From an uncultured Rickettsiales bacterium (GTDB lineage Bacteria; Myxococcota_A; UBA796; UBA9615): DNA of 64,000 bases. Below the pieces are notes generated by a model. That model searched no databases and was not told the DNA's origin. It saw nothing but the letters and a program-made list of their open reading frames with translations. A program made the position numbers and the translations under genes. Below, one piece after another: positions 8,823 through 58,214 of the stretch; positions within the stretch are counted from its first letter, which is position 1; every line of letters starts with the position of its first letter. The stretch lies in contig CAYFOA010000011.1 in NCBI GenBank assembly GCA_964344575.1, positions 4,193 to 68,192 of the forward strand, written 5' to 3'.

Positions 8823-8844
8823 TCCGTTGCACTACACTCCGCCG

Positions 8845-41505: not shown

Positions 41506-41580
41506 CGGTACAGAGCACCTGATCTACAGGTCGCGAACGCTGAAATAAAGGGCGGGACCGCGGTGTATCCTGCTCCGCCG

Positions 41581-42687
41581 ATGGACCCGAGGCGCCTCGT
41601 CCTGCTCCTGATCGCCGCCTGCGCGCTCGCGCTGGCGCCCGCGTGCAAGTCGGGCAACGCGGACGACGGCGGCCGGTCCGACGACGACTCGGCCAAGGAC
41701 GACGACGACTCCGCCGAGGAGGAGGCGCGCGCCACCCCGGTCAAGGTCGAGGCCGTCGCGCGGGGGCCGATCTCCGAGACCATCGCGGCGTCGTCCACGG
41801 TCGAGTCCGAGCGGCGGGCCGACATCCACGTCGAGGTGAGCGGGACCGTCGAGGCGATCCGGGTCGAGGAGGGCGACCGCGTCGGCGCCGGGGCCGTGCT
41901 CGCGGTCCTCAAGAACCCCGCCCTCGACGGCGAGCTGGAGCGGGCTGAGTCCGCCTTCGGGCGCGCCGAGGACGACTACGGCTCCGTCCGCGGGCTGTAC
42001 GAGAAGGGCTTCGTCAGCCGCAACGAGTACGACGCCGCCGCCCACACGTTCGACACCGCCCGGGCGACCCTGGAGCAGGCGCGCGCGTCGCACCGGGCGG
42101 GGCAGCTCCGGAGCCCCATCGAGGGGACCGTGAGCATGCGCGCGGTCCGGTTCGGGGAGGCTGTCACGCCCCCGATGTTGGCCTTCCAGGTCATCGATCT
42201 GGCGGCCCTCCGGGTCGAGGTGTCGCTCCCCGAGAAGGACCTCAGCCGGCTCCGCGTGGGGCAGACGGCGCGCATCCGGAGCGAGATCCTGGAGGACGCC
42301 GCCGAGGTCCCCGGCCGCATCGAGCGGATCAGCCCCGTGGTCGACCCCGCCAGCGGCACCGTCAAGGTCACCGTCGCGCTCGACCCCGGCCAGGTGACGC
42401 TCCGGCCGGGGATGTTCGTCGCGGTGGAGATCGTCGTCGACACGCACGAGGCGGCGCTGCTGGTGCCGAAGCGGGCGGTCGTCTACGACGAAGGCGAGCC
42501 CCACGCGTTCGTCGTCGTGCCCGCCGAGGAGGGGGACGGGACGGTGGTGAAGCGGAAGAAGCTCGACCTCGGGTTCAGCGACCGCGACCAGGTCGAGGTG
42601 CTCGAGGGAGTGGCGGAGGGGGACCGCGTGGTGATGGTCGGGCAGGGCCTGCTCCGCGACGACTCCGACGTTCGCGTCGTCGAGTAG
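41581..42687 (+). CDS. RND efflux membrane fusion protein (periplasmic adaptor, HlyD family) lipoprotein with Asp-rich linker
   Basis: Lipobox in MDPRRLVLLLIAACALALAPAC. Asp-rich linker KSGNADDGGRSDDDSAKDDDDSAEEE. Coiled-coil and beta-barrel-type MFP regions. Confidence 0.85.
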   Translation: MDPRRLVLLLIAACALALAPACKSGNADDGGRSDDDSAKDDDDSAEEEARATPVKVEAVARGPISETIAASSTVESERRADIHVEVSGTVEAIRVEEGDRVGAGAVLAVLKNPALDGELERAESAFGRAEDDYGSVRGLYEKGFVSRNEYDAAAHTFDTARATLEQARASHRAGQLRSPIEGTVSMRAVRFGEAVTPPMLAFQVIDLAALRVEVSLPEKDLSRLRVGQTARIRSEILEDAAEVPGRIERISPVVDPASGTVKVTVALDPGQVTLRPGMFVAVEIVVDTHEAALLVPKRAVVYDEGEPHAFVVVPAEEGDGTVVKRKKLDLGFSDRDQVEVLEGVAEGDRVVMVGQGLLRDDSDVRVVE

Positions 42688-42734
42688 GCCCCCCCCGCGA
42701 ACGCGCGCGCTCGCGCTCGGTATACTCCGGCACT

Positions 42735-44921
42735 GTGACGGATCCCGGTTCTTCGCCGCCGCTGCCAGACGGGGTGGATCGCGACGGCGAGTTGGCCTTC
42801 GACGGGCTGGGGACGGCCGCGTGGGTGACCGACGTGGGCCACGTCCGGCAGCGCAACGAGGACCGCCTCCTCGTCAAGTCGCTCTGGGGCGGGAGCTACG
42901 CCCTGATGCTTGTCGCGGACGGCGCCGGGGGTCACGACAGCGGCGACAAGGCGGCCGAGATGGTCGTCGCCACGTTCAACGAGCGGTTCTCCGAAGACGG
43001 CGAGGCCCCCGACGACGGCGACCCCGGCAAGTGGATCCGCGACACCATCATCGACGCCCACGGGCGGGTGAAGGGGCTCGGTCACGGCCAGAGCCGCCCC
43101 CCGGCGTCCACGGTCGTCGGGCTCATCGTCGAGAAGGCGTCGCTGTGCGGCTGGCGCTTCCACGTCGGCGACTCGCGCCTGTACTCCCGCGCCGAGGACG
43201 GGATGGTCGCCCAGTGGACCCGCGACCACAACATCACCAACGGCCTCATCGACCGCGGCCTCCCCGTCACGCAGGCGCTGAAGATCGCCGACGGCGGCCG
43301 GCTCACCCAGGTCCTCGGCGGCGGCAGCGACCCCGAGCCGGAGATCCTCGGCCCGCTCAAGCTCCTCCCCGGGCAGGTGTTCCTCATCTGCAGCGACGGC
43401 ATCTACGGCCACAACGCCGACCGGGAGGTGCTCCTGCCGGCGATGAACCCGGCCGAGGGGACGACGACGGAGCGGGCGCGCGAGCTCAAGGGGGCGGTGC
43501 TCGACGGCGAGGCCCCGGACAACCTCTCCGCGGTCCTGTGGCAGGTGCCCGGCGACGCGGTGGCGACGTTCGAGCGGGAGACCGTCACGAACTCCATGAA
43601 GGCGGTGACGGCGGCGGACATCGCGCGCCACCTCGCCGAGTCGGAGGAGGACGCCGAGGCGCCGACGCAGCGGATGACGGCGCCGGAGGACTCCGGGGGA
43701 GGCGGGTTCATGATCCTGCTGCTCCTCGCGGGCGCGCTGGCGGCGTTCCTGTGGTGGCAGTCGGAGCAGGACGGCGAGGCCGACGTGGCCGACGACGCCG
43801 CTACCGAGACGCCGGCCCCGACGCCGGCCGAGCCGGAGACCCCCGAGGAGGACGCCCCCCTGCCGTGGCCGGACGACCCCGAGGCGTCGGACCGGCTGGC
43901 GGCGCTGGTGGGCGGCTTCGACGGCGCCTGGTGGGACGCCCTCCCCCCGACGACGAAGGCCGCCAAGGTGCAGCTCCTCGCCGACCTCGTCGCCGCGGAC
44001 CTGGGGCCGTCGGTGGTGCTGTCGTACATCGAGGAGCCGGACGGCCCCACGGTGGACGCCGAGTTCGCGGGGTGGAAGCTCGCGAACGACGAGGGGCGCC
44101 AGCGGGCCGCCCAGGGCTGGGACGCGCGCGCCGCGATCATCTCCAGCCACCCCGTCCTCGGGGCCCAGCCCGGCATCCCCGCGCTGATGGCCGACGCCGC
44201 CTGCCAGCAGGTCCGGCTCGGGTGGCCGCGGCCCGGCGGCGAGGCGCCCCCCGCGCTGGAGCGGTGGCTGGCCGCCTGCCTCCCCGCGGAGCTGGGGCGG
44301 CGCAAGGTCGAGATCCGGCTCGGCGCCTGGCCCGAGCGCGGCTGGTCGATGGACGACCTGAACCGCGTCCGCGCGCTCGCGCTGAGCGAGGAGGGGCCGG
44401 CGCAGCTGCGCGACGTCGCCGCTGCGGAGAACGTCCGCGTGGCCGAGCTGGGGCTGCTCGCGGCGGCGATGACGAGCCCCCTGCTGGCCCACGTCGAGAT
44501 CGATCTGCACGTCGTCCAGAGCCGGCAGGACGTCCCCGCGGAGTCGACCGCGGAGGAGGCGGAGGCGCTGGTCCACGGCCGGGCGGTGGAGATCGCCACG
44601 CTCCTCCGGGCGGCGGCGGGCGGACCGGTCCCCGTGCGCGGCGCCGGGTGGGTCGCCGACGACCTCGCCGTGGCGGCCGACGTCTCCGTCCTGGGGGACG
44701 CCGACAGGGCCCGCATCGCTGACCTGAACCGCCGCGTCGAGGTGGTCGTGGGCAGCGCCGTCGGGCCCGAGCCGGAGGAGGCGCCGGACGCCGAGGAGGA
44801 GGAGCTCCCCGGCGAGGTCGAGTCGGTCGAGGAGGCCGAGCTCCCCGACGAGCCCACGTCGGCCCCCGTCGAGGCCGGCGACTCGGCGCCCGCAGGCGAC
44901 GACGACGACTCCGCGCAATAA
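42735..44921 (+). CDS. PP2C-family (PPM) Ser/Thr phosphatase with TM helix and ~400-aa C-terminal domain
   Basis: TDVGHVRQRNEDR and LVADGAGGHDSGDKAAE are PP2C metal-binding motifs. TM helix GFMILLLLAGALAAFLWW. GTG start. It sits between the MFP and RND genes with 47- and 29-nt gaps. Confidence 0.8.
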   Translation: MTDPGSSPPLPDGVDRDGELAFDGLGTAAWVTDVGHVRQRNEDRLLVKSLWGGSYALMLVADGAGGHDSGDKAAEMVVATFNERFSEDGEAPDDGDPGKWIRDTIIDAHGRVKGLGHGQSRPPASTVVGLIVEKASLCGWRFHVGDSRLYSRAEDGMVAQWTRDHNITNGLIDRGLPVTQALKIADGGRLTQVLGGGSDPEPEILGPLKLLPGQVFLICSDGIYGHNADREVLLPAMNPAEGTTTERARELKGAVLDGEAPDNLSAVLWQVPGDAVATFERETVTNSMKAVTAADIARHLAESEEDAEAPTQRMTAPEDSGGGGFMILLLLAGALAAFLWWQSEQDGEADVADDAATETPAPTPAEPETPEEDAPLPWPDDPEASDRLAALVGGFDGAWWDALPPTTKAAKVQLLADLVAADLGPSVVLSYIEEPDGPTVDAEFAGWKLANDEGRQRAAQGWDARAAIISSHPVLGAQPGIPALMADAACQQVRLGWPRPGGEAPPALERWLAACLPAELGRRKVEIRLGAWPERGWSMDDLNRVRALALSEEGPAQLRDVAAAENVRVAELGLLAAAMTSPLLAHVEIDLHVVQSRQDVPAESTAEEAEALVHGRAVEIATLLRAAAGGPVPVRGAGWVADDLAVAADVSVLGDADRARIADLNRRVEVVVGSAVGPEPEEAPDAEEEELPGEVESVEEAELPDEPTSAPVEAGDSAPAGDDDDSAQ

Positions 44922-44950
44922 GCGCGACCCTGAGGGGTATAAGCCTCCGC

Positions 44951-47900
44951 ATGGCCGCAGGAGCGCCCGTCCAGGCCACCCTCGTCCGTCGCCCGGTGGC
45001 CACGATCATGGCCTGCCTGGCGGCGGTGGTGTTCGGCGCCGTGTCGTACACCAACCTCCCCCTGAACCTGATGCCGGACCTCGACTACCCCACCATCACG
45101 GTGCGGACCGAGTACCCCGGCGCGGCGCCGGCGGAGGTCGAGAGCTACGTCAGCGAGGAGATCGAGGAGGAGCTGTCGACGGTGCCGGGGCTGGCGTCGA
45201 TCGAGAGCGTCTCCCGGGCGGGGCTGTCGGACGTCATCCTCGAGTTCGAGTGGGACACCGACATGGCGGAGGTCTCGCAGGCGGTGCGGGAGCGGCTGGG
45301 GCTGCTGTCGCTGATCGACGAGGCGAGCCGCCCGTTGGTCCTCCGCTACGACCCCAACCTCGACCCCATCGTGCGCCTCGCCCTGGCCGCCGAGGACGAC
45401 TCGATCGAGGCGCTGGTGACGGCCCGGCGCCTCGCCGAGGACGAGCTCCGGCCGGCGCTGGAGCGGCTCCCCGGGGTCGCCGCGGTCAAGGTCCGAGGGG
45501 GGCTGGAGCGCGAGGTCGCCGTCGAGGTCCACGAGGGGCTCCTCCACGCGCGCGGCTTCACGGTGCAGGACGTCGTCAGCCGGCTGAGCGAGGAGAACAT
45601 CAACCTCGCCGGCGGGTCGCTGCTGGAGGGGCAGACCGAGTACCTGATCCGGACCCTCAACGAGTTCCGCGGACCCGAGGAGATCGCGGACCTGCACCTG
45701 ATGAACCAGCAGGGCGGCATCGCGCGGCTGGGCGACCTCGCCGAGGTCGCGGTGCGGCCCAAGGAGCGCGAGGTGGTGGGGCGCGTGGGGGGGCGCGAGG
45801 CGGTGGAGATCGCGGTCTACCGGGAGGCCGACGCGAACATCGTCGCCGTCTCCCGGGCGGTGCGGGACCGGGTGTTCGGGACGGAGGCCCAGCAGGCCTG
45901 GGTGAAGGCGCAGAAGGAGAAGCCCAAGGAGGCCGACGGCACGCCCGTCGCGCGCAAGGACGGCAAGAAGAAGGGGGACAAGAAGGGGAAGAAGGGGAAG
46001 AAGAAGAAGCGGCGGCGGAAGCGGCAGCGGGCGGGGGTGCCCCAGGGCGGCGGCGGCGGCGGCAAGATGACCGCCCGCCAGATGACCAACTTCCTCGCCT
46101 ACGAGCTGCCCGAGGGGATGGAGTTCGAGGTCGTCAGCGACCAGGCGCGGTTCATCGAGGCGGCGATCTCCGACGTCCGCGACGTGGCGCTGTACGGCGC
46201 CTTCCTCGCCGTCCTCGTGCTCTTCGTCTTCCTTCGCCACGGCTGGTCGACCTTCATCATCGCGACCGCGATCCCGGTCTCCGTCGTCGTCACGTTCGCG
46301 CCGATGTACCTGTTCGGCGTCTCCCTCAACCTGATGTCGCTGGGCGGGCTGGCGCTCGCGATCGGCATGCTCGTCGACAACTCGATCGTGGTGCTGGAGT
46401 CGATCCACCGCTGCCGCGAGGAGGGGGACGACATCGTCGCCGCAGCGATCCGGGGGGCCGCCGAGGTGTCGGGCGCGGTGACGGCGTCCACCCTGACGAC
46501 CGTCGCCGTGTTCCTCCCCATCGCGTTCGTCGTCGGCGTCGCGGGGCAGCTGTTCGGCCACCTCGACCTGCCGGTGGTGTTCGGCCTCCTCGCCAGCCTC
46601 GCCGTGGCCCTTTTCCTGATCCCCGTGCTGGCCGCCCTGCCCGCCCGGATCGACCTCCGCGAGATCGACGACCGCTGGGACATCGTCCGCTTCACGCTGC
46701 CCTTCACCGAGCTCCGGGACGCCTACCGGTGGGCGTGGAACGGCAAGCTGTTCGGGCCGATCCGGGTGCTCGGGATGACGCCCCTGATCCTCGTCCGGTT
46801 CGCCCTCTCGGCGGTCTTCGTGTGGACGCTCTGGCTCTTCCTGCGGGGGGCGCGCCTGGTGGTGAAGGCGGCGCGCGGCCTGCTGTGGGTCGGCGGGGTC
46901 GCGACGGGGGACGCCGGGCGGATGGTGGCGGGCCGCTTCGACCAGGTCCTCGGCTGGGTCGAGGCCGTCTACGAGCGGGCGCTGCGGACGTCGATCCGGA
47001 TCCCCTCGGCGGCGCTCGTGCCCGCCGTCGCGCTCTTCGCGCTGGCGCTGGTGTCGGTCCCGAAGCTGGGCACGGAGCTGCTCCCCGAGGTCCACCAGTC
47101 GGTCGTCCTCGCGCACGTGGCGCTCCCCGTGGGGACGCCCCTGGAGCGGACGATGGAGGCGACGGACACCATCGCGAACGCGGCGCGGCGCCTGCCGGGG
47201 GTGACGTCGGTGTACGCGGCCGCGGGGACGGAGCGTGAGGTGGGGGCGTCGTCGGACTCCGGCGAGAACACCTGCGACCTCGTCGTCCGGCTCGAGCCGA
47301 CGGAGGACCCGGCGGCGGCGGAGGCGGCGGTGCGCGAGGAGCTGCGCCGCATCGTGGGGGAGGTGCCGTCCGCCGAGGTCACGCTGTCGGCGCCGACGCT
47401 GTTCTCGTTCAAGACGCCGCTGGAGGTCGACGTCCGCGGCGAGCGGCTGGCCGACCTCCGGGCGTCGGCGGACGCGGTGGTGGAGCGGCTCGCCAAGGTG
47501 GACGGGCTGCGGGACGTCCAGTCGAACCTCCAGGCCGGCTACCCCGAGATCCAGGTCCGCTACGACCGGGCCCGGCTGGAGCAGTACGGGCTCGACATCG
47601 GCGTGGCCGCGCGCGCCGTCCGGGACAAGGTGGCGGGCAACGTCGCCACGGATCTGCGCGGGCAGGGGCGCAAGACCGACGTCCGGGTGGTGCTCCGGGA
47701 GGCGGACCGGGAGACCATCGACGACCTCGAGTCGCTCAACGTCAACCCGCGCGGGGCGCCGCCGATCCCGCTCAAGGCGGTGGCCGACCTGACGCCCTCG
47801 GAGGGGCCCTCGCAGATCCGCCACGCCGAGGGCGAGCGGGCCGCGCTGGTGACGGCGAACGTCGCCGGCTTCGACCTCGGCACGATGGCCGAGCGGGTCG

Positions 47901-48484
47901 ACCGGGAGATCGCGGCGATGGAGCTGACCGGGGACGTCCGCTACACGGTCGGCGGCCAGTCCCAGGAGATGGAGGCGTCGCTCCAGTCGCTCCGGTTCGC
48001 GCTGCTCCTCGCCGTCTTCCTCGTCTACGTGATCATGGCGTCGCAGTTCGAGTCGGTGCTCCAGCCGACCGTCATCCTCTTCGCCATGCCGCTGGCGCTC
48101 GTGGGCGCCGTGGCGGGCCTGTGGCTGGGCGGCCTGCCGGTGTCCGTCGTGGTGCTGATCGGGTCCATCGTTCTAGCGGGGGTCGTGGTCAACAACGCGA
48201 TCGTGCTGGTGGACTACGCCAACCAGCTGCGGGATCGCGGCCAGGACTCCGTCGAGGCCATCGTCAACGCCGGGCGCGTCCGCTTCCGGCCCATCGTGAT
48301 CTCGACGCTGACCACCGTCCTCGGGCTGATGCCGATGGTGGTGGGGACGGGGGAGGGGTCCGAGATCCGGCAGCCGCTGGCGCTGACCGTCATCGCCGGG
48401 CTGCTGTCGTCGACGCTCCTGACCCTCGTCGTCATCCCCGTCCTCTACAGCCTCCTCGGCCGGTTCCGGAGCCGCGCGGCGTGA
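44951..48484 (+). CDS. RND efflux transporter permease (AcrB/CzcA superfamily) with Lys/Arg-rich insertion
   Basis: 12-TM RND architecture. Conserved LAIGMLVDNSIVVLE and VVNNAIVLVDYAN motifs. Insertion KAQKEKPKEADGTPVARKDGKKKGDKKGKKGKKKKRRRKRQR. Confidence 0.9.
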   Translation: MAAGAPVQATLVRRPVATIMACLAAVVFGAVSYTNLPLNLMPDLDYPTITVRTEYPGAAPAEVESYVSEEIEEELSTVPGLASIESVSRAGLSDVILEFEWDTDMAEVSQAVRERLGLLSLIDEASRPLVLRYDPNLDPIVRLALAAEDDSIEALVTARRLAEDELRPALERLPGVAAVKVRGGLEREVAVEVHEGLLHARGFTVQDVVSRLSEENINLAGGSLLEGQTEYLIRTLNEFRGPEEIADLHLMNQQGGIARLGDLAEVAVRPKEREVVGRVGGREAVEIAVYREADANIVAVSRAVRDRVFGTEAQQAWVKAQKEKPKEADGTPVARKDGKKKGDKKGKKGKKKKRRRKRQRAGVPQGGGGGGKMTARQMTNFLAYELPEGMEFEVVSDQARFIEAAISDVRDVALYGAFLAVLVLFVFLRHGWSTFIIATAIPVSVVVTFAPMYLFGVSLNLMSLGGLALAIGMLVDNSIVVLESIHRCREEGDDIVAAAIRGAAEVSGAVTASTLTTVAVFLPIAFVVGVAGQLFGHLDLPVVFGLLASLAVALFLIPVLAALPARIDLREIDDRWDIVRFTLPFTELRDAYRWAWNGKLFGPIRVLGMTPLILVRFALSAVFVWTLWLFLRGARLVVKAARGLLWVGGVATGDAGRMVAGRFDQVLGWVEAVYERALRTSIRIPSAALVPAVALFALALVSVPKLGTELLPEVHQSVVLAHVALPVGTPLERTMEATDTIANAARRLPGVTSVYAAAGTEREVGASSDSGENTCDLVVRLEPTEDPAAAEAAVREELRRIVGEVPSAEVTLSAPTLFSFKTPLEVDVRGERLADLRASADAVVERLAKVDGLRDVQSNLQAGYPEIQVRYDRARLEQYGLDIGVAARAVRDKVAGNVATDLRGQGRKTDVRVVLREADRETIDDLESLNVNPRGAPPIPLKAVADLTPSEGPSQIRHAEGERAALVTANVAGFDLGTMAERVDREIAAMELTGDVRYTVGGQSQEMEASLQSLRFALLLAVFLVYVIMASQFESVLQPTVILFAMPLALVGAVAGLWLGGLPVSVVVLIGSIVLAGVVVNNAIVLVDYANQLRDRGQDSVEAIVNAGRVRFRPIVISTLTTVLGLMPMVVGTGEGSEIRQPLALTVIAGLLSSTLLTLVVIPVLYSLLGRFRSRAA

Positions 48485-51400
48485 GGCCCGACGGACTCGG
48501 CGCGCTGCTCCCCCGGTTCGCGCTGGGCCGCCCCGTCACCGTCTCCATGGGGCTCCTCGCGATCGTCGTGCTGGGCGCGATCGCGTACGCGAAGATCCCC
48601 GTCCAGCTGATGCCCGCGGGCTTCGAGTACCCGTACCTGTGGGTCTGGATCCCGTATCCGGACTCGACCCCCCGCGAGACCGAGCGGTCCGTCGTGCAGC
48701 CGATCGAGGACGCGATCGAGACGCTCCCCGGGGTGCGCGAGATCGACGCCCACGCGGGCCAGGACTACGCCCGCTTCAGCATCGAGTTCGACCAGAAGAC
48801 GGACATGACGGAGGCGTGGGCGGGGCTGATGGACCGGCTCGAGCGGACCCGCCCCGAGCTGCCCGACGACCTCGAGCACTGGTACGTCTACAAGTACAAC
48901 CCCGAAGACGACCCCATCCTCTGGGCGGCCATCTCGATCCCCGACGACGCGGACGATCCCGCCTACGTCATCGAGACGCGCATCCAGAAGGTGCTCGAAC
49001 GGGTCCCCGGCGTCGCCCGCGTCGAGTTCTACGGAGCGCATCGGTCGCGGGTGTACGTCGACTTCGACCGCGAATCGGTCGAACGGCACGGCATCAGCCT
49101 GTACCAGGTGATGCAGGCGCTCCAGTCGGACAACTTCACGATGCCCTCGGGGGAGGTGCGGGCGGACGGGCGGGTGGTGCTGGTCCGGTCGCTGGCCACC
49201 CTGGAGTCGCGGGACGCCATCGCCGCGCTGCCGGTGGGGAACGGGGTCACGCTGGAGGACATCGCCCAGGTCGTGGTGGCACGGCCGGTGGACACGTCCA
49301 TCCACCGCGTCAACGGCGACAACGCCGCCTCGATCGACGTCTACAAGGAGTCCGGCGCCAACACGATCGAGGTCTGCCGCCGCGTCCAGGAGGCGGTCGA
49401 CGGGCTCGCGGACGACCCCAAGCTGGCCGGCTTCGTCGTCCACCGCTTCTTCGACCAGGGCGACCTCATCCAGGAGTCGATCGACAACCTCCGCAACACG
49501 GCCCTGCAGGGCGGCCTGCTCGCGATCGTGGTGCTCCTCTTCTTCCTCCGCCGCCTCCGGGTGACCCTGCTCATCGCGCTGTCGATCCCGCTGTCGCTGC
49601 TGATGACGATCATCGTCCAGTACTTCGTCGGGGAGTCGATCAACCTGCTCGTGATGATGGGGCTGATGCTCGCCGTCGGGATGACGGTGGACAACAGCAT
49701 CGTGGTGGTGGAGTCGATCTACAGGCGGCGCGAGGAGGGGGAGAGCCCGTGGGAGGCGGCGCTGCACGGGACGGCGGAGGTGGCGCTCGCCATCGTCGCG
49801 GCGACGTCCACGACCATCGTCGTCTTCCTCCCCCTGATCCTGATGTCGGACGACGCGCAGTTCAGCTTCTTCATGGGGAAGCTGGGGCTGCCGGTCTGCT
49901 ACGCGCTGCTCTGCTCGCTGTTCGTGGCGCTGATCATCGTCCCGCTGGCGACGGTGACGGTGGCGGCCGCTCCGCCCGCGAAGCCGTCGCGGATCATCGA
50001 GGGGGTGACGGACCGGTACGCGCGGCTGCTCCGGGCGACGCTCCGGAACCGCTCCTGGGCGGCGGTCGCGTTCGTGCTGTCGTGGGCGTCCTGCGCGGTC
50101 CCCGCGAACAACCTCGACCAGACGGACGAAGGGGACGGCGGGATCATCGACTTCGTCATCGGGATGGAGTTCCCCGCGTCGTTCACGGTCGACGAGATCG
50201 ACGAGTCCATCCAGAACATCGAGGAGATGGTCGCCGACAAGCAGGAGGAGTGGCGCATCCGGGCGGTGAGGGCGCGGCGCTGGCGGGGGTCGCGGCGCGG
50301 CTTCGTGATGGCGTTCATGGAGAAGCGGCAGCGGGGGGACATCACGAAGGACGAGATCAACGAGCTGCTCCCCGACATGCTCGAGGAACGGGAGATGCCG
50401 GGGGTCCAGGCGTGGGCGGGGTGGCGGCGGAACATGGACAGCGGCGAGACGCTGTCGATCAACGTGACGGGGCCGGACAGCGAGGTGCTGACGGAGCTGG
50501 GGGACGAGATCGTGCGGCGGCTGCGGGACGCGCCGGGGGTGGTCGGCGTCGAGGCGGAGACGGAGGAGCGGGGGGCGGACGAGCTCCACGTCCTCGTCGA
50601 CCGGGAGCGGGCGGCGCGGTACGGCGTCTCCCCGACGGTGCTCGCCCGGACGGTGGCGTTCGGCTTCCGCGGGGTGGGGCTGCGGCCCGTGCTGATGGAC
50701 GGGCGCGAGGTCCCCATGCAGGCGGGCTTCCGGCTATCGGACCGGGCCGACATCGGCAAGCTGCGCGACTTCGGCATCTGGTCGCCGGTGACGGGTCAGG
50801 TGGCGCTGGGGACGGTGGCGGACTTCGAGTTTGCGAAGGGGTACGGGACGATCCGGCGTCGCGACCGGCGGACGTCGCTGCGCGTGACGGCGACGCTGGA
50901 CGACAAGGACCTCGGCGCCGGCTTCATGAAGATCGAGGAGGCGCTGTCGACGCTGCAGCTGCCGCGCGGCTACGAGTGGAACCGGGGCCGCCGCTGGGAC
51001 CGGCTCGAGGAGCAGGACAAGGCGCAGAAGTTCGCGTTGCTGCTGTCGATCTCGTTCGTCTTCCTGCTGATGGGGATGCTGTTCGAGTCGTTCTGGACCC
51101 CCGTCGCGGTGATCGTGTCCGTCCCGTTCGCGTTCGTGGGGGCGTACTGGATGCTGTTCGCGACGGGGACGACGGTCGAGATGATGGCCGGGATCGGAAT
51201 GGTGATCCTCGTCGGCATCGTCGTGAACAACGCGATCGTCCTCGTGGACCGCGTGCAGCAGTACCGCGACGAGGGGATGGAGCGCGACGAGGCGCTGCTG
51301 GCGGGGGGGCGCGACCGGTTCCGGCCGATCGTGATGACGGCGGCGACGACGATCGTGGGGCTGCTCCCGATGGCGATCGGCGACTCGGCGATCGTGGGGA

Positions 51401-51537
51401 CGCCCTACTTCCCGCTGGGGCGGGCGGTGATCGGGGGGCTGGTGGCGTCGACGATCCTGAGCCTCGTCTTCGTGCCCCTCTTCTACAGCTACTTCGACGA
51501 CCTCAAGGCCTTGATGACCGGGACGCTGCGCCGATGA
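48481..51537 (+). CDS. Second RND efflux transporter permease (paralogous, MdtB/MdtC-like tandem arrangement)
   Basis: The GTG start overlaps the RND1 stop (GTGA). Motifs VGMTVDNSIVVVESI and VVNNAIVLVDRVQQ. 12-TM topology. Confidence 0.9.
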   Translation: MRPDGLGALLPRFALGRPVTVSMGLLAIVVLGAIAYAKIPVQLMPAGFEYPYLWVWIPYPDSTPRETERSVVQPIEDAIETLPGVREIDAHAGQDYARFSIEFDQKTDMTEAWAGLMDRLERTRPELPDDLEHWYVYKYNPEDDPILWAAISIPDDADDPAYVIETRIQKVLERVPGVARVEFYGAHRSRVYVDFDRESVERHGISLYQVMQALQSDNFTMPSGEVRADGRVVLVRSLATLESRDAIAALPVGNGVTLEDIAQVVVARPVDTSIHRVNGDNAASIDVYKESGANTIEVCRRVQEAVDGLADDPKLAGFVVHRFFDQGDLIQESIDNLRNTALQGGLLAIVVLLFFLRRLRVTLLIALSIPLSLLMTIIVQYFVGESINLLVMMGLMLAVGMTVDNSIVVVESIYRRREEGESPWEAALHGTAEVALAIVAATSTTIVVFLPLILMSDDAQFSFFMGKLGLPVCYALLCSLFVALIIVPLATVTVAAAPPAKPSRIIEGVTDRYARLLRATLRNRSWAAVAFVLSWASCAVPANNLDQTDEGDGGIIDFVIGMEFPASFTVDEIDESIQNIEEMVADKQEEWRIRAVRARRWRGSRRGFVMAFMEKRQRGDITKDEINELLPDMLEEREMPGVQAWAGWRRNMDSGETLSINVTGPDSEVLTELGDEIVRRLRDAPGVVGVEAETEERGADELHVLVDRERAARYGVSPTVLARTVAFGFRGVGLRPVLMDGREVPMQAGFRLSDRADIGKLRDFGIWSPVTGQVALGTVADFEFAKGYGTIRRRDRRTSLRVTATLDDKDLGAGFMKIEEALSTLQLPRGYEWNRGRRWDRLEEQDKAQKFALLLSISFVFLLMGMLFESFWTPVAVIVSVPFAFVGAYWMLFATGTTVEMMAGIGMVILVGIVVNNAIVLVDRVQQYRDEGMERDEALLAGGRDRFRPIVMTAATTIVGLLPMAIGDSAIVGTPYFPLGRAVIGGLVASTILSLVFVPLFYSYFDDLKALMTGTLRR

Positions 51538-53129
51538 GAACGACGACTCTGACCCTGACGACGCTCCTGCTGCTGGCGGCGACCCCCGCGGCGGCGGAGG
51601 ACTCGACGCTGGAGGCGGACCTCGACGCGATCGAGGCGATGTCCGCGCTCGGCGACGACGCGCACGACCTCCCGCTGGAGCACGCCGTGCGGCGGACGCT
51701 GGAGGAGAACCTCGGCCTGCGGGTCCGCATCAAGGAGCTGGAGGCGGCGCAGGCGCGGCTGAAGGCGTCGTGGGCGCCGTGGATGCCGTTCGTGACGGCG
51801 GGGTGGGGGTACCACCCGTCGCGGTCGGAGATGTTCCTCGACGACTACGAGACGTGGCGGCGGACGAACGGGGACAGCGCGAACTACAACGTCGGGTTCG
51901 GGGTGAACCTGCCGACGGGGACGAACGTGTCGCTGACGTGGGCGCAGGGGGCGGTCAACAGCAAGGTGAACTTCGACCCGGAGGTGACGTTCGAGAACCC
52001 GCTCGACCCGGACAACCCGATCCCCTTCCTGGTGGACAGCGACTTCTCGACGAAGTGGTCGGCGCTGTCGATCCGGCTGAACCAGTCGCTGCTGCAGGGG
52101 ATCTCGCCGACGTACCAGCTGCGGAGCGTCCGGAAGGCGGGGCTGGCGCTGGACGTGGCGGAGGTGCAGCGGGACCAGGAGATGACGGACGCGGTGGCGC
52201 TGGCGCTGAAGCAGTACTGGGACCTCGTGGGGTACCGGCGGCTGGTGGAGATCCACCGCATCGACCGGCGGCTGGCGGAGGACCAGCGGGAGGTGACGCA
52301 GGCGCTGATCGACGCGGGGAAGCTGGCGCCGATCGAGCTGCTCCGGGTGGACGAGCGGGTGGCGAGCGCGAGCGCGGCGGTGCTGGAGGCGCAGCACAAC
52401 GCGGCGGCGGCGGAGTCGGGTTTGAAGCAGCTGATGCGGGTGGGTCACGACCACGCGCTGTTCCGGACGCCGCTGCGCCCCGTGGACGGGGTGGCGTCGG
52501 TGATCCCGTCGCGGGATCGGGACGCGTCGATCGACATGGCGGTGGTCCGCAACCCGGGGCTGATCCTGGCGCGGGCGGACGTGGAGGCGGACTGGATCGA
52601 CCGGCAGGCGGCGCGGCACGAGATGCTGCCGGACCTGGGGCTGACGGCGGCGCTGTCGCTGAACGGGTCGGGGTTCGAGGTCCGGGAGTCGGTGGAGGAC
52701 GTGTTCAACACGCGGTTCCCGGACCTCGAGCTGGGGATGACGTTCACGATGCCGGTGCCGGACGTGGGCGCGATCCACGCGCTGAGGGCGTCGGACCTGG
52801 AGCTGGAGGCGGCGGAGGCGAACGAGGCGAACGTGGAGCTGCAGCTGCGGTCGAACGTGGAGCAGTTCTGGGGCGCGATCCAGTCGTTCGCGGCCCAGGT
52901 GGAAGTCGCCCAGGTCCGAGCCGACCTCGCGGCCCGGTCGGCGGACGCGGCGGCGGCGACGTACGAGGCGGGCAAGAACACCCTCCGCGAGGTCTTCGAG
53001 GCCCAGGCGGACCTCAAGGAAGCGAGGGTCGCCCTCCTCCAGGCCGAGATCGCCGAAGCGAAGTCGAGGGTCGAGCTGGAGGTGCTCCGGGGCTCGTTGC
53101 TGGAGACGCTGGGGGTGGAAGTGGAGTAG
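51534..53129 (+). CDS. Outer membrane efflux protein (TolC/OMF family)
   Basis: ATGA overlap with RND2. Signal peptide MRTTTLTLTTLLLLAATPAAA. Two-repeat coiled-coil/beta pattern typical of OMF. Internal ATG of a composite ORF. Confidence 0.85.
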   Translation: MRTTTLTLTTLLLLAATPAAAEDSTLEADLDAIEAMSALGDDAHDLPLEHAVRRTLEENLGLRVRIKELEAAQARLKASWAPWMPFVTAGWGYHPSRSEMFLDDYETWRRTNGDSANYNVGFGVNLPTGTNVSLTWAQGAVNSKVNFDPEVTFENPLDPDNPIPFLVDSDFSTKWSALSIRLNQSLLQGISPTYQLRSVRKAGLALDVAEVQRDQEMTDAVALALKQYWDLVGYRRLVEIHRIDRRLAEDQREVTQALIDAGKLAPIELLRVDERVASASAAVLEAQHNAAAAESGLKQLMRVGHDHALFRTPLRPVDGVASVIPSRDRDASIDMAVVRNPGLILARADVEADWIDRQAARHEMLPDLGLTAALSLNGSGFEVRESVEDVFNTRFPDLELGMTFTMPVPDVGAIHALRASDLELEAAEANEANVELQLRSNVEQFWGAIQSFAAQVEVAQVRADLAARSADAAAATYEAGKNTLREVFEAQADLKEARVALLQAEIAEAKSRVELEVLRGSLLETLGVEVE

Positions 53130-53151
53130 GCCGGCTGGTGCAACGCCTCGC

Positions 53152-53649
53152 TCAGGGCCGGGAACTTGGACGGCAGTCCGAGCGCTGTCGCGGGGAGGGC
53201 ACAGTCCAGCGGCCACCTACCGGGGCGCTCCAGGCTCCCCCGCCGTCACGGACTCGAACGCGCCATTCGACCTCGTCCCCCTTCGGCCAGTCGCGACACA
53301 CCGGGAGCGTTACTGTCTCCCTCCGATCGAGGCTGACGTGCGGCGCGACCAGCGTCGTCCCCAGTGCTTCGACTTCGAACTCGGGTGAATCGAGGCGCTC
53401 CTTGCCCGGCTCTACATCAACGAGGAGCCGCACGGCGTATCCGAGGGCGACGCCGCGTCGAGGCTGACCACAGGTCGTGGCGGGATGACCTGGGTCGCAG
53501 AACTCGACCCCGTGAATCACGGTCGCCGTCGGCCGGGAGGATGTGGGTTCGCAGGCTTGCAGCAGCAGCGAGCCGACGAAGGCTACCGCCAACGCCCCGC
53601 CGAGGTGCCGCCCCGAGGGCGACCGAGGCTCGCCGACTGGGGTGGTCAA
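53152..53649 (-). CDS. Hypothetical small lipoprotein (165 aa), low confidence
   Basis: N-terminus ...GGALAVAFVGSLLLQACEP carries a lipobox. Composition is protein-like. It is convergent with the OMF gene. Confidence 0.4.
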   Translation of the reverse strand: MTTPVGEPRSPSGRHLGGALAVAFVGSLLLQACEPTSSRPTATVIHGVEFCDPGHPATTCGQPRRGVALGYAVRLLVDVEPGKERLDSPEFEVEALGTTLVAPHVSLDRRETVTLPVCRDWPKGDEVEWRVRVRDGGGAWSAPVGGRWTVPSPRQRSDCRPSSRP

Positions 53650-54350
53650 AGGTAGTTGAAGATGTCCCAGGGCCCTGGGCAGTCGGTATCACTTCTGGCG
53701 GGCATCCCGCTCTGGTAGCCCCATCCATCCGTTTGGTATGTGCAGTCGGGCGGAACGTACGAGTACCACTCTACGAGGTAGTCGCACAGGCAGACCGCAG
53801 TGAAGAACGGAAACCAGTCGATGTCCCAGTAGCAACCCTGCAGATGACGGTGCGTACCGCTCGGTGGACAGGGCACCGACGAGTCTTCTTCTACTTGTAC
53901 TTCTTCGTCTTCTTCATCTTCATCGTCATCGTCGGGCGCAGTGCCGTCGTCGTCATCGTCGTCATCGTCGTCGTCGTCATCATCGTCGTCGTCATCGGGC
54001 GCGGTGCCGTCGTCGTCATGGTCCGGTTCGTCGATCTCGACGGTGTCGGGGCCGGGGCTGTCGTCCACCAGCTCGCGTATGAGGGTCGCGACCGGACTCT
54101 CTCCGCCGTCGTCGTCGTCGGTTGCCACGACCGTTGTCCCGGCCCCAGGCGCCGTCATGCACACGCCCATCTCGGTGTCGCACCCGCAGCAGGTGCCGTC
54201 GTCCGAGCCCGAGGTCGGTGCACAGTCCGAGTCGGAGTCGCATTCCTGTCCAGCTGGGCAAGTCACGCCCTCGCAGGGATCGCCGCCTTCGCCTTCGCCA
54301 TCCGGCTCGACCCTACCCTCGCCTGGGCCGCCCTCCTCGCCCTCGGCGAC
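53646..54350 (-). CDS. Acidic poly-Asp, Cys/aromatic-rich protein; 5' end undetermined
   Basis: Reading frame of ORF 53646..55082. From ~54350 downward codon usage is A/T-rich at third positions, atypical for this genome. Contains CEGVTCPAGQECDSDSDC, a run of ~17 Asp, and the C-terminus CYWDIDWFPFFTAVCLCDYLVEWYSYVPPDCTYQTDGWGYQ. The upstream part of the ORF is Arg-rich and spurious. Confidence 0.35.
   Translation of the reverse strand, partial: VAEGEEGGPGEGRVEPDGEGEGGDPCEGVTCPAGQECDSDSDCAPTSGSDDGTCCGCDTEMGVCMTAPGAGTTVVATDDDDGGESPVATLIRELVDDSPGPDTVEIDEPDHDDDGTAPDDDDDDDDDDDDDDDDDGTAPDDDDEDEEDEEVQVEEDSSVPCPPSGTHRHLQGCYWDIDWFPFFTAVCLCDYLVEWYSYVPPDCTYQTDGWGYQSGMPARSDTDCPGPWDIFNYL
53885..54005 (-). 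repeat. GAC/GAT trinucleotide run encoding poly-Asp (~17 D plus flanking D/E)
   Basis: gtcatcgtcgtcatcgtcgtcgtcgtcatcatcgtcgtcgtcatc on the plus strand. Confidence 0.9.
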
Positions 54351-54646
54351 CGAGAAGTCGGGTGGGACCTGGGGACCGAAGAACCAGGTCGGCCAGCTCG
54401 GGGATCGCGCTGCGATCGACGGGGACGCGCAGGTGCACGGCCCCGACGCCGGCTTCCACCAAGCCCTCCGCGCCACGCCCCCTCGGAACCACTCGGGCAA
54501 CGGCTGTTCTGCGCCGCGCCTCGACCGGCAGGAACACGAACCGCCGCGCTCACCCTTGCAGGAGCAGCTTCGACCGGAGCAGGAGCGATGCCCCTTCGTG
54601 GAGCGGACCCGAGCGCTGACTCGATCGAGGCGGCGCTCCCGCCAGC

Positions 54647-55033
54647 TCAGAGCGTGACGATCTGCCACCGGGCGCTCGCGCGGCACGCGACGGGCGTCGT
54701 CCCCGAGTTCCGGTGGATGTGCCAACCGAACCGTATGAGGCGCTTGCTGCTCGTGTCGCTGCTGGCGTCCGAGTAGGCGCCCTGGTCCTGGTAGCCGGCA
54801 GCGTTCGTCGCGGTGCCGACCGAGGTCGAGCTGCCCGGGTTGTCCGCGAAGTCCGCGACCTGGTAGGCCGGGACGACGTCGAGGTTCCCGATGACTTCCT
54901 CGATCTCGAAGGCAGCGCGGACCTTCTCGATGTTGGCCGCGCTCATCCACGGCGTCGCCGAGATGAAGATGTCGGTTGTGTCGTTCTCGGTCATCAGGGT
55001 GGTCGGTGGTGCGTAGACCGAACGAGTTCCCAT
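54647..55033 (-). CDS. Hypothetical protein (128 aa) of unknown family, preceded by a consensus Shine-Dalgarno site
   Basis: MGTRSVYAPPTTLMTENDTTDIFISATPWMSAANIEKVRAAFEIEEVIGNL... Composition is balanced and non-GC-biased. GAAGGAGG lies 8 nt upstream of the ATG. Local GC is lower than the genome average. Confidence 0.55.
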   Translation of the reverse strand: MGTRSVYAPPTTLMTENDTTDIFISATPWMSAANIEKVRAAFEIEEVIGNLDVVPAYQVADFADNPGSSTSVGTATNAAGYQDQGAYSDASSDTSSKRLIRFGWHIHRNSGTTPVACRASARWQIVTL

Positions 55034-55041
55034 GGGGATCC

Positions 55042-55049
55042 CCTCCTTC
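55042..55049 (-). promoter_or_regulatory. Consensus Shine-Dalgarno GAAGGAGG 8 nt upstream of the ATG of ORF 54647..55033
   Basis: Plus strand reads ccctccttc. Confidence 0.6.
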
Positions 55050-55086
55050 GCCGCGACGTGCGGCGTGAGAGGAGGGTTTCACAGCC

Positions 55087-55104
55087 AGAGAGAGAGAGAG
55101 AGAG
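55087..55104. repeat. (AG)9 dinucleotide microsatellite in intergenic region, followed by a 7-bp stem hairpin at 55140-55156
   Basis: cagagagagagagagagagagc, then ccttccg-tgg-cggaagg. Confidence 0.9.
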
Positions 55105-55197
55105 CAAGGTCCGTGCCGTTGCGCCCAGTGTAGTTCGGTCCTTCCGTGGCGGAAGGGCCAGGGTCGTGCACGGAGGCGAGCGACCTATACTGGCCTC

Positions 55198-55773
55198 GTG
55201 AGTTCTCGTGCCACGAAGCGAGCGACGTACGAGGATCTCCTCGCGCTCCCCGTGCACGTGGTCGGAGAGCTCATCGGGGGCGTCCTGGAGGTCTCGCCGC
55301 GCCCCGCTCCGCCTCACGCGGTCGCCCACTCGGGCCTCAGTGGCCAGCTGACGCCGCCCTTCAGCTGGGGGCGCGGCGGACCCGGCGGCTGGTGGATCCT
55401 CACCGAGCCGGAGCTTCACCTGGGCTCGGACGTCCTCGTGCCCGACCTCGGAGGTTGGCGACGGGACCGCATGGAGGAGATGCCCGAGACGGCGTACTTC
55501 GAGCTGCCGCCGGACTGGGTCTGCGAGATCGTCTCGCCCGCGACGGCTCGAGTCGATCGGGTGCTCAAGCTGCCGGTCTACGCGAGCGCCGGCGTCGCCT
55601 GGGCATGGCTCGTCGATCCGATCGCCCGATCCCTGGAGGTCTTCCGCGGAGCCGACCGGACCTGGGTGCTGCACTCCACGCACTCCGGCGACGACATCGT
55701 GCGCGCTGAACCCTTCGCCGCGGTCGAGCTCGAGCTGTCGCTGGTCTGGGGGGAGCTGCGGGGGGCGGGATAG
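55198..55773 (+). CDS. Uma2-family (DUF820) PD-(D/E)xK putative endonuclease
   Basis: YFELPPDWVCEIVSPAT resembles the Uma2 signature (PDLVVEVLSPS). 191 aa. GTG start. Confidence 0.8.
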   Translation: MSSRATKRATYEDLLALPVHVVGELIGGVLEVSPRPAPPHAVAHSGLSGQLTPPFSWGRGGPGGWWILTEPELHLGSDVLVPDLGGWRRDRMEEMPETAYFELPPDWVCEIVSPATARVDRVLKLPVYASAGVAWAWLVDPIARSLEVFRGADRTWVLHSTHSGDDIVRAEPFAAVELELSLVWGELRGAG

Positions 55774-55847
55774 AAGGTCCTCCTGATGCCGGCGGTAGGG
55801 AGGCAAAGCCAGGTTGCATTGTGCAACCCATCCGATAGAATTGCTTC

Positions 55848-56189
55848 ATGTCCACCGCCGTCAAGCTGTCCTCCGAGCTGGTCGAGGCTGCGCGCGCCGA
55901 GGCTGAGCTGTACTCGCGGTCGATGACGCAGCAGATCGAGCACTGGGCTCGTGTCGGGCGCGCCATCGAGCGGTCGGGGGCCGTCGATCCCGAGCGGGTG
56001 CGCGCGGCGCTGCGGGCGGAGCTGCACTTCGACGAGCTGGGGACCGAGGAGCGGATGGCCGTGCTGGGTGAGCTGGAGCGGGCGGTCCTGAAGCCGAAGG
56101 GGGACCGCGCCCTGGCCCGGGAGCTCGCCGCCGGCGGTGAGACGCTGGTGGGGGCCGGCGCCGACGGCGAGCTGTTCGAGGTGCCGTGA
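55848..56189 (+). CDS. ParD-like antitoxin (partner of zeta-toxin-like ATPase)
   Basis: 113 aa, helical and acidic. The N-terminus has the pattern MSTAVKLSSELVEAARAEAELYSRSMTQQIEHWARVGRAIE. The stop overlaps the downstream GTG start (GTGA). Confidence 0.7.
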   Translation: MSTAVKLSSELVEAARAEAELYSRSMTQQIEHWARVGRAIERSGAVDPERVRAALRAELHFDELGTEERMAVLGELERAVLKPKGDRALARELAAGGETLVGAGADGELFEVP

Positions 56190-58142: not shown

Positions 58143-58214
58143 ACCTCTGCCTCCGAAGACGATGGGTCGGGGTCCACACTATGTCAAGACGGTGTATTGA
58201 CACAGTGCTTCAAA

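Follow-up and report, generated by a model that had tools for sequence, protein, structure and literature searches.

A PstP-like PP2C phosphatase gene within a tandem-RND efflux gene cluster of an uncultured marine lineage

The gene cluster described here raises the question of why a Ser/Thr phosphatase gene lies between the adaptor and permease genes of an efflux pump, and whether its product acts on that pump. To our knowledge, what is understood about how RND pumps are regulated concerns almost exclusively their transcription. In the literature searched, neither a description of a PP2C gene inside a tandem-RND operon nor a precedent for a phospho-switch on a tripartite pump was found. The window, which is the whole 64,000-nt stretch of DNA analysed, contains the cluster at positions 41581-53129. 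The five genes are co-directional on the + strand in the order MFP lipoprotein, PP2C, RND1, RND2 and OMF (Table 1).

The gene cluster and its pump type

The MFP and PP2C genes are separated by 47 nt and the PP2C and RND1 genes by 29 nt. The last two junctions are overlaps of 4 nt each; the GTG start of RND2 overlaps the stop of RND1 (GTGA) and the ATG start of the OMF gene overlaps the stop of RND2 (ATGA). The GC3 in the bodies of all five genes is 0.93-1.00 and dips only in sliding windows that span gene junctions. The gene order, coordinates, gaps and overlaps given in the initial annotation were confirmed directly from the sequence, and its domain calls by Pfam and NCBIfam profile searches of all five products. 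The MFP has a lipobox (LAPAC) whose Cys is followed by an acidic DDDDSA tether, and it scores 212 bits against TIGR01730 RND_mfp (cut-off 94.9). With two ACR_tran permeases and an OEP protein encoded alongside it, the cluster makes up a tripartite RND (HAE-1-like) pump, and the earlier assignment to a tripartite pump with tandem permeases was correct.

RND1 and RND2 have a local identity of about 30-47% and are adjacent tandem paralogues after one MFP gene, which is the gene layout of the MdtBC/MuxBC type. MdtABC and MuxABC-OpmB are likewise tripartite pumps with two RND permeases, encoded by one MFP gene and then two tandem paralogous RND genes (PMC7015380). Unlike in those systems, the window operon encodes an OMF, and PP2C lies between its adaptor and permease genes. 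Among solved structures, RND1 is closest to MdtB (9lyq_B, 1.4e-93), but MdtB does not have the two large insertions of RND1 and the alignment has gaps at both. Orthology to MdtB/MdtC is not supported, since both RND1 (370 against 1584 and 422 against 1774) and RND2 (299 and 302) score far under the equivalog cut-offs. In both permeases TM4 carries DN and TM10 carries NN; the corresponding residues of AcrB-type references are DD and KN. The cluster belongs to a widespread tandem pump type in which an MFP and an OMF accompany two RND permeases, one long with two insertions and the other of regular length. The tandem of a long and a regular RND is also found in KSB1, Calditrichota, Gemmatimonadota and other phyla; this pump type is uncharacterised and would be defined here first.

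Table 1. Coordinates of the genes, domains and promoter-like boxes of the cluster within the window
Feature	Position	Strand	Details and basis
-10-like box TATCCT, 9 nt upstream of MFP ATG	41566-41571	+	TATMVT site
MFP (periplasmic adaptor lipoprotein, 368 aa)	41581-42687	+	HlyD_D23 4e-27; RND_mfp 8e-63
-10-like box TATACT, 8 nt upstream of PP2C GTG	42721-42726	+	conserved position
PP2C Ser/Thr phosphatase, bitopic, 728 aa, whole gene	42735-44921	+	Pfam, AF2, alignment
Cytoplasmic PP2C catalytic domain, aa 18-280	42786-43574	+	PP2C_2, Foldseek, invariant columns
Single TM helix, aa 324-344	43704-43766	+	AF2 helix over hydrophobic stretch FMILLLLAGALAAFLWW
Lineage-specific globular domain, probably periplasmic, aa 375-680	43857-44774	+	AF2, confident
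Predicted OmpA-like C-terminal half, about aa 520-680, ends DLNRRVEV	44292-44774	+	fold, two methods
Disordered acidic C-terminal tail, net charge -21	44775-44918	+	sequence, AF2
-10-like box TATAAG within GGTATAAG, 7 nt upstream of RND1 ATG	44938-44943	+	conservation
RND permease 1, long form, 1177 aa	44951-48484	+	ACR_tran 1e-231, 3 stretches, 772 bits
RND1 insertion, Lys/Arg/Gly-rich, periplasmic PN2 loop, aa ~307-374	45869-46072	+	alignment
RND1 insertion of about 105 aa, TM6-TM7 cytoplasmic linker, aa ~565-669	46643-46957	+	alignment
RND permease 2, regular length, 1018 aa	48481-51537	+	ACR_tran 1e-180, 603 bits
TolC-like OMF (531 aa, signal peptide)	51534-53129	+	OEP 7e-47, 2 stretches, 160 bits

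The PP2C phosphatase

The GTG start of the PP2C gene is backed by N-terminal alignment with homologues. One database annotation puts the start 13 codons later. The protein matches PF13672 (PP2C_2) over aa 37-240 with 41.8 bits (1.2e-10, cut-off 24). The metal-binding motifs RQRNED43, VAD62G63AGGH, CSD221G222 and APD262N263 are intact, and D62, G63, D221, G222, D262 and N263 are invariant in an alignment of 26 sequences. The AF2 model has a pLDDT of mostly 80-97 over the catalytic domain, except in the flap, and Foldseek matches this domain to Stp1, PstP, MspP, PppA and tPphA (E 2e-13 to 1e-11, TMt 0.76-0.85). Profile, fold and metal-Asp motifs all place the protein in the PPM/PP2C family, and it is predicted to be an intact phosphatase with all catalytic motifs. 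It does not reach the Stp1/IreP equivalog NF033484 (102.5 bits, cut-off 230).

No N-terminal signal sequence was found in the protein, and the TM helix is followed by 384 residues to the C-terminus. A cytoplasmic PP2C domain, one TM helix and a C-terminal folded domain make up a PstP-like bitopic layout. The C-terminal domain probably lies outside of the cytoplasm, as its OmpA-like fold, two invariant Cys (C490 and C515) and acidic flank suggest. The pstP gene lies with pknA/pknB and cell-wall synthesis genes. PstP of M. tuberculosis has the same architecture as the window protein, with an intracellular PP2C that a juxtamembrane linker and one TM helix join to a C-terminal domain outside the cytoplasm (PMC3052367). 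The catalytic domains superpose with a TMt of about 0.81 (1txo, 2cm1) and match in sequence with an E of 1e-11. However, the extracytoplasmic domain of PstP has 191 aa, against about 300 aa plus the tail in the window protein, where it is family-specific and partly OmpA-like; the window gene also differs in being part of an RND efflux operon, and its hosts are diderm. The PP2C was ruled out as a PstP orthologue because the identity is about 24% and no kinase or cell-wall synthesis gene was found within 10 kb of PP2C in any locus examined.

Conservation of the linkage and transcription signals

At least 14 distinct metagenomic loci share the MFP-PP2C-RND1-RND2-OMF order, with PP2C-domain identities as low as 54-60%, as seen from gene context in MAGs whose carriers are all uncultured. 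It was found in L004, L006, L008, L009, L011-L015, L021-L023 and L104 (our locus labels). Identities in the most divergent clades are 56-60% for MFP, 56-59% for the PP2C domain, 57-61% for RND1, 61-64% for RND2 and 43-50% for OMF. In the neighbor-joining tree and identity table, every basal clade whose context is known has PP2C linked to the pump. On this rough tree, which is without support values and rooted on relatives of about 30% identity, the five-gene order appears to be ancestral to the PP2C family and kept in most branches. A single insertion event explains the place of PP2C between adaptor and permease rather than at the edge, while chance adjacency would need two. The comparison of loci indicates that the PP2C gene is a genuine insertion, confined to this lineage and retained over a long time, of a PstP-like phosphatase in a widespread type of tandem-RND pump. 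The MAGs of this uncultured, marine lineage carry the labels Myxococcota, Deltaproteobacteria or Proteobacteria.

PP2C is not strictly tied to the pump genes, and two lineages have a pump-less PP2C. Short forms of the protein (L010/L019, L016 and L018) have no MFP, RND or OMF gene nearby; in L010, as in L016, L018 and L019, the gene is kept in the same 2-Hacid_dh neighborhood with the pump genes gone. The long form P0022 (L105) is in another context altogether, also with no MFP, RND or OMF gene nearby. The closest outgroup pumps (46-55% RND1 identity) have an MFP-RND-RND order and the same RND1 insertions, without PP2C.

The cluster has the short gaps and overlaps of a single operon, and no terminator-like site was found in the MFP/PP2C or PP2C/RND1 gap of the window, yet -10-like boxes lie 7-9 nt before the MFP, PP2C and RND1 starts. 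The TATCCT box before MFP is one of only six TATMVT sites on both strands of the window, four of which are 6-10 nt upstream of a high-GC3 ORF start. At the same position before PP2C, TATACT or TATAAT is found in L004, L009, L011, L012, L013, L014, L015 and L022, and a conserved -10-like box directly before the PP2C start is present in nine loci. Before RND1, GGTATAAG or GGTATAGG is kept in L004, L011 and L012. The TATACT box is possibly a leaderless-type internal promoter. Given the conserved -10-like box of PP2C and the similar one of RND1, PP2C is likely to be transcribed independently in the clade of the window, alongside any read-through.

The co-transcription put forward in the initial annotation therefore agrees with the operon-like spacing and with the gaps free of terminator-like sites, but less well with the boxes at PP2C and RND1. 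That annotation would have taken the arrangement as incidental if PP2C had its own promoter and terminator, and if related operons lacked it with no conserved linkage. A box of its own and the outgroup pumps without PP2C point in that direction; the order conserved in the loci above and the lack of a terminator-like site in the two gaps do not, and the findings speak mostly against an incidental arrangement.

It is quite possible, if somewhat doubtful, that PP2C is a housekeeping PstP/Stp1-like phosphatase that merely resides in the operon as a neutral or convenient-expression insertion, with no pump-specific role. Its own conserved box, its retention without pump genes in L010, L016, L018, L019 and L105, the lack of a linked kinase or FHA gene and the outgroup pumps that work without PP2C are consistent with such a role. 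The flap (W161-G196) is almost invariant across the family and nearly identical in the pump-less forms. Since the flap usually sets PP2C substrate choice, this near-identity argues for a pump-independent substrate. However, a neutral insertion is not expected to last to 54-60% identity with the order unchanged in so many loci. In L006, L008 and L021 the PP2C GTG begins 7 nt after the MFP stop, so some clades seem to couple PP2C translationally to MFP. The charge pattern of the PP2C tail and RND1 insertion, described below, is also contrary to a housekeeping role, although weakly.

The periplasmic domain and possible roles at the pump

The C-terminal half of the periplasmic domain has a beta-alpha-beta-alpha-beta-beta arrangement and is predicted to have the OmpA/MotB peptidoglycan-binding fold; binding itself is putative. 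The sole sequence signal for this is a weak profile match to TssL1 (E 0.019), and Pfam OmpA (PF00691) did not match any of 16 PP2C members at E up to 10. The NRRVE motif is conserved, with L664 and R666 invariant. The domain could serve as a structural accessory that anchors the tandem-RND pump to peptidoglycan in the manner of MotB, TssL and Pal-type proteins, with the phosphatase secondary. The RA...NRRVE motif aligns to TssL1, the window protein retains the RA-motif Arg (R616), the residue with which OmpA-like domains bind diaminopimelate, and OmpA-like domains have been suggested to contact RND transporters in A. baumannii (PMC12388955). Such an anchor is nevertheless quite unlikely, as only 16 of 26 members have the canonical Arg (His in 6, other residues in 4) and Pfam finds no OmpA domain. 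The catalytic residues and flap (56-85% identity) are also far more conserved than the periplasmic domain (30-66%). In addition, the mid form L104 has no periplasmic globular domain and is still in the operon, while the pump-less L105 has the domain. Since L104 keeps its place without it, the domain seems dispensable for linkage.

The initial annotation had also suggested that the extracytoplasmic domain senses the exported substrate. In such a receptor-type phosphatase the domain would bind this substrate or another small ligand and switch the PP2C, by analogy with Chlamydia RsbU. A topology with a periplasmic domain, a TM helix and PP2C permits transmembrane signalling, and the N-terminal half (aa ~380-515), for which no known fold was matched, may act as a binding module. 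However, no sensor-type fold (PAS, Cache, dCache or PBP) was detected, what can be recognised of the domain resembles OmpA and not a small-molecule sensor, and one TM helix is present with no HAMP or other transducer. The mid forms have lost the domain and kept operon residence. These findings weaken the suggestion and make a receptor role very improbable. RsbU has the reverse domain order, with the periplasmic domain N-terminal and PP2C C-terminal, and acts in the partner-switching module RsbV/RsbW, which is absent at the window PP2C. The activity of RsbU, also a membrane PP2C with a periplasmic domain, is thought to be set by that domain across the membrane (bioRxiv 10.1101/2022.05.13.491914).

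A Hanks kinase gene does exist elsewhere in the window, as noted earlier (11542-13263, - strand, Pkinase 5e-40), but it is unlinked, about 28 kb from the cluster. No kinase, FHA or STAS gene or other phospho-signalling partner was found in the flanks of any locus examined. In the threonine-phosphorylation pathway of T6SS (PpkA, PppA, Fha and TssL) too, a PP2C gene lies inside the cluster for a machine that spans the envelope, and its product controls that machine post-translationally. TssL, with a periplasmic OmpA-like domain, is phosphorylated on its cytoplasmic part (PMC3953482). PppA (6jkv) is among the best structural matches to the window PP2C, whose C-terminal motif finds its best sequence match in TssL1. 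Unlike in T6SS, the phosphatase itself bears the TM helix and OmpA-like domain, the cluster has no kinase/FHA gene and the machine is an RND efflux pump.

We tentatively favor, at a little under an even likelihood, that a PstP-like PP2C was inserted into the tandem-RND operon and is made with the pump, coupling efflux or envelope state to Ser/Thr signalling. The insertion between adaptor and first permease occurred in one uncultured marine lineage. PP2C would be made together with the pump by read-through or translational coupling in some clades, and in the clade of the window from its own leaderless-type promoter. It would sit in the inner membrane beside the pump, with the periplasmic part at the cell wall or at the periplasmic surface of the pump, and would remove phosphate from cytoplasmic phospho-Ser/Thr targets. 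These may lie on the cytoplasmic faces of the pump, although targets in an unlinked Hanks-kinase pathway are more likely, and efflux or envelope state would thereby be coupled to Ser/Thr signalling. The gene context makes a functional coupling plausible, though tentatively so, and hints that phospho-signalling is tied to the efflux machine. Phospho-control of the pump itself is suggested by gene context only, given that PP2C and RND1 have their own boxes, outgroup pumps lack PP2C, some PP2Cs are pump-less, the OmpA-like domain is dispensable and no partner is linked. A Ser/Thr phosphatase gene that stays in a pump operon across such divergence would give a first genomic sign that certain diderm bacteria connect eukaryote-like phospho-signalling directly with a tripartite efflux machine. 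The combination of PP2C, TM helix, novel domain with an OmpA-like fold and acidic tail would be an architecture not previously described.

It is also conceivable, but unlikely, that PP2C is an integral extra subunit that reports the state of the pump or cell wall and dephosphorylates the cytoplasmic faces of the pump. Contact of the TM helix and periplasmic part with the pump would then be made by the OmpA-like module, or by the acidic tail bound to the basic periplasmic loop of RND1. A Gram-negative tripartite efflux machine would in this way contain its own Ser/Thr phospho-switch. The tail contains ELPGE/ELPD repeats and DDDDSAQ at its end. A weak charge pattern, which also speaks for the reading favored above, pairs an acidic tail (-4 to -23) with a basic periplasmic insertion in RND1 (+9 to +28); L023 combines an acidic RND1 insertion (-21) with hardly any PP2C tail.

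Composition and conservation of the operon

An intact bitopic PP2C phosphatase is encoded inside a tandem-RND pump operon and is inherited with it. The five plus-strand genes (41581-53129) have a GC3 of 0.93-1.00 across their bodies, lower only in sliding windows that straddle the junctions, and the window has a GC content of 72%. Profile searches bear out each domain identity proposed in the initial annotation, and the junctions are as described there, with gaps of 47 and 29 nt followed by GTGA and ATGA overlaps. Databases annotate the PP2C start 13 codons downstream of the start of the 728-aa product.

Features of the window, with profile matches and identity to the window in the most distant clades
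Feature	Position	Strand	Match or context	Identity
MFP lipoprotein	41581-42687	+	HlyD_D23 4e-27; TIGR01730 over cut-off	56-60%
PP2C	42735-44921	+	PP2C_2 41.8 bits (cut-off 24)	56-59% (catalytic domain); 30-37% (periplasmic domain)
RND1	44951-48484	+	ACR_tran 1e-231	57-61%
RND2	48481-51537	+	ACR_tran 1e-180	61-64%
OMF	51534-53129	+	OEP 7e-47	43-50%
TATCCT	41566-41571	+	9 nt before MFP ATG	
TATACT	42721-42726	+	8 nt before PP2C GTG	
TATAAG	44938-44943	+	7 nt before RND1 ATG	
-10-like hexamer	55186-55191		6-10 nt upstream of a start codon	
-10-like hexamer	26170-26175	-	6-10 nt upstream of a start codon	
DDDDS[AS]	41680-41715		MFP tether	
DDDDS[AS]	44898-44915		PP2C C-terminus	
DDDDS[AS]	15583	-	unrelated ORF	
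DDDDS[AS]	18317	-	unrelated ORF	
DDDDS[AS]	18988	+	unrelated ORF	
ELPGE/ELPD repeats	44775-44918		PP2C tail	
RND1 PN2 insertion	45869-46072		aa ~307-374	
RND1 TM6-TM7 insertion	46643-46957		aa ~565-669	
Segment with weak coding signal	53130-58200		GC 0.66-0.70	
Uma2 endonuclease-like gene	55198-55773		in 53130-58200	
ParD-like antitoxin with zeta/AAA_33 toxin	55848-56779		in 53130-58200	
HTH-citrate synthase gene	58272-59477			
STAND-type NTPase with TPR repeats	8512-11538	+		
Hanks kinase	11542-13263	-		

The PP2C family numbers only about 54 clusters at 90% identity, and its members come exclusively from metagenomes and MAGs, whose labels are inconsistent (Myxococcota, Deltaproteobacteria, Proteobacteria, "Rickettsiales"). 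When all the loci collected were searched by tblastn with the five window proteins, the identical MFP-PP2C-RND1-RND2-OMF order appeared in the metagenomic loci L004, L006, L008, L009, L011-L015, L021-L023 and L104. The arrangement is real, and relatives conserve it in the same order. A scan of metagenome contigs with the family alignment, which came down to the generic PP2C pattern VADGAGGH, gave hits that were nearly all to unrelated PP2Cs; just three short family contigs were useful.

The neighbour-joining tree of catalytic domains, which carries no support values and has a distant root, was read together with the identity table. The forms without a globular domain are one clade nested within the long forms, which have a PP2C, a transmembrane helix, a periplasmic globular domain and a tail. 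The basal clades of known context are all pump-linked, so the simplest reading is that the PP2C family began with the five-gene order.

The arrangement is best classed as a PstP-like phosphatase joined to a tandem-RND pump, both parts being of known kinds. Mycobacterial PstP, as described (PMC3052367), has the same architecture as the window PP2C, but the latter is not its orthologue. The T6SS threonine-phosphorylation pathway (PMC3953482) likewise has its PP2C encoded among the genes of an envelope machine in which an OmpA-like inner-membrane protein also takes part; the kinase and FHA partner of that pathway are absent here. MdtABC and MuxABC also have two permeases (PMC7015380), whereas the window pump scores under their equivalog thresholds and both of its permeases have DN in TM4 and NN in TM10, the proton-relay helices. 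Full-text literature searches turned up neither an account of an RND operon containing a PP2C nor anything pertinent on phospho-regulation of RND pumps. The arrangement is surprising and supplies a concrete hypothesis of post-translational efflux control.

Architecture of the phosphatase and the permeases

The catalytic domain (aa 18-280) keeps all PP2C metal-binding motifs and superposes on Stp1, PstP, MspP, PppA and tPphA with a TMt of about 0.8. The flap (W161-G196) is almost invariant in 26 family members, against a mean column identity of 46%, and is therefore more strongly conserved than any other part of the protein. The catalytic domain is followed by a linker, a single hydrophobic helix (aa 324-344), a globular domain and a tail. 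The tail is disordered and acidic with ELPGE/ELPD repeats; these short motifs recur, in up to eight copies, in the acidic tails of long, mid and short forms (proteins P0039-P0054).

The globular domain (aa ~375-680) is predicted confidently, with a pLDDT of 87.7 and a pTM of 0.85 when modelled alone. A Pfam search gave no match to it, and a search of 1.84 billion representatives with its profile found just 16 proteins, of which the strong matches are members or apparent fragments of this family. We infer that this domain is periplasmic from its two invariant Cys (C490, C515), its OmpA-like fold and its acidic flank. The notion that it makes the protein a ligand-sensing receptor phosphatase is very improbable. 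The Arg of the RA motif in its OmpA-like C-terminal half (R616) is kept in the window protein and, by our own count in the alignment, in 16 of the 26 members; the window protein could therefore bind peptidoglycan in the canonical way, but the family as a whole does not share this property. It is unlikely that the phosphatase serves as a peptidoglycan-anchoring accessory.

RND1 carries two insertions. The periplasmic PN2 insertion (60-70 aa) is rich in Lys, Arg and Gly, has a net charge of +18 and is probably disordered; such a strongly basic periplasmic loop is unusual. The insertion in the TM6-TM7 cytoplasmic linker (~105 aa) contains a hydrophobic run, MTPLILVRFALSAVFVWTLWLFL, that may be an additional membrane segment, and is even larger in KSB1 homologues of 1275-1400 aa. 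Both insertions are also present in outgroup pumps without a PP2C, which rules them out as adaptations to the phosphatase. Since the outgroups share them, the pump type is old and widespread and the PP2C insertion lineage-specific.

RND1 and RND2 both have VDNS in TM4 and VNNA in TM10, where AcrB-, MdtB- and AdeB-type references have VDDA and AKNA. These permeases thus have Asn in place of two proton-relay residues, the second Asp and the Lys. The TM11 Arg is retained.

Linkage to the pump and possible role

The partnership of PP2C and pump is not obligate, as four results indicate. The short forms (about 400-440 aa; PP2C, transmembrane helix and acidic tail) in L010, L016, L018 and L019 lie in the same 2-Hacid_dh neighbourhood without MFP, RND or OMF. 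The long form P0022 (L105) has an E1 dehydrogenase gene on one side and an ABC transporter gene on the other. The mid form P0053 (L104) lacks the globular domain, yet is encoded between MFP and RND1. In the three outgroup contexts read, MFP, a long RND and an RND occur with or without an OMF and with no PP2C. The first 23 loci had suggested that the periplasmic domain always accompanies the pump, which is ruled out by L104 (operon present, domain absent) and by L105 (domain present, pump absent). RND1 orthologues of at least 57% identity number about 40, matching the PP2C loci, and homologues at 46-55% identity belong to other lineages.

Gene order in these uncultured organisms gives some functional coupling of the phosphatase to the pump a close to even chance. 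The PP2C would be made alongside the pump and sit in the inner membrane, its periplasmic portion would lie at the wall or pump surface, and its catalytic domain would act on Ser/Thr-phosphorylated proteins of the cytoplasm. It may control the pump directly, as the initial annotation proposed. However, since the flap is invariant in pump-less forms, the gene has outlived the pump and no kinase or FHA gene is linked, a substrate set broader than the pump is at least as likely. Several observations favour a pump-independent role, and a housekeeping phosphatase whose gene simply happens to lie in the operon is a plausible, though less than even, prospect. The Hanks kinase noted elsewhere in the window is real and lies 28 kb from the operon.

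Every basic periplasmic RND1 insertion (+9 to +28) is paired with an acidic PP2C tail (-4 to -23), and in L023 the insertion is acidic (-21) and the PP2C almost tail-less. This pattern is a weak pointer to contact between PP2C and RND1 and carries little weight, since L023 is a single exception case. The motif DDDDS[AS] is found in the MFP tether at all 14 lineage loci and at the PP2C C-terminus only in the window clade. Its recurrence in unrelated window ORFs rules it out as specific evidence of MFP-PP2C docking; it may be typical of the linkers of lipoproteins or secreted proteins in this lineage.

Transcription signals and neighbouring genes

The co-transcription previously considered likely agrees with the short gaps and overlaps, and neither operon gap has a terminator-like site; the -10-like boxes before PP2C and RND1 count against it. 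Eight other loci keep the PP2C box, as TATACT or TATAAT, with unchanged spacing. The pattern TATMVT occurs six times in the whole window on both strands, and four of these sites precede the start of a high-GC3 ORF by 6-10 nt. Such geometry is that of leaderless-mRNA promoters in Actinobacteria and Deinococcus, and the hexamers suggest that promoters of this type are common in the window organism. Given the boxes before MFP, PP2C and RND1, the five genes in the window clade may form three adjoining transcription units with read-through. In L006, L008 and L021 the PP2C start is 7 nt past the MFP stop, and in the L006 clade PP2C is probably coupled to MFP. A sigma-70 consensus scan over 12 kb returned zero promoters, the consensus being uninformative for an organism of 72% GC.

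Several loci (L006, L008, L009, L010, L104) share an upstream neighbourhood of sigma-54, a MopE-like copper-binding protein, an Rce1-like protease, a fatty-acid desaturase, a short-chain dehydrogenase and a 2-hydroxyacid dehydrogenase. The divergent genes upstream of the operon encode an FAD monooxygenase and an aminotransferase; in the window's clade, these two are inserted between the 2-Hacid_dh gene and MFP. Downstream, about 5 kb separate OMF from the citrate synthase gene. Since citrate synthase directly follows OMF in L004, this segment is probably an inserted island.

Just downstream of the outgroup tandem-RND operon at the locus of P0125, which has no PP2C, the opposite strand carries genes for an FHA-domain protein and a choline-kinase/APH-like kinase. 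Their presence may be fortuitous or may be a further tie of the pump type to phospho-signalling. In the window, the STAND-type NTPase gene adjoins that of the Hanks kinase.
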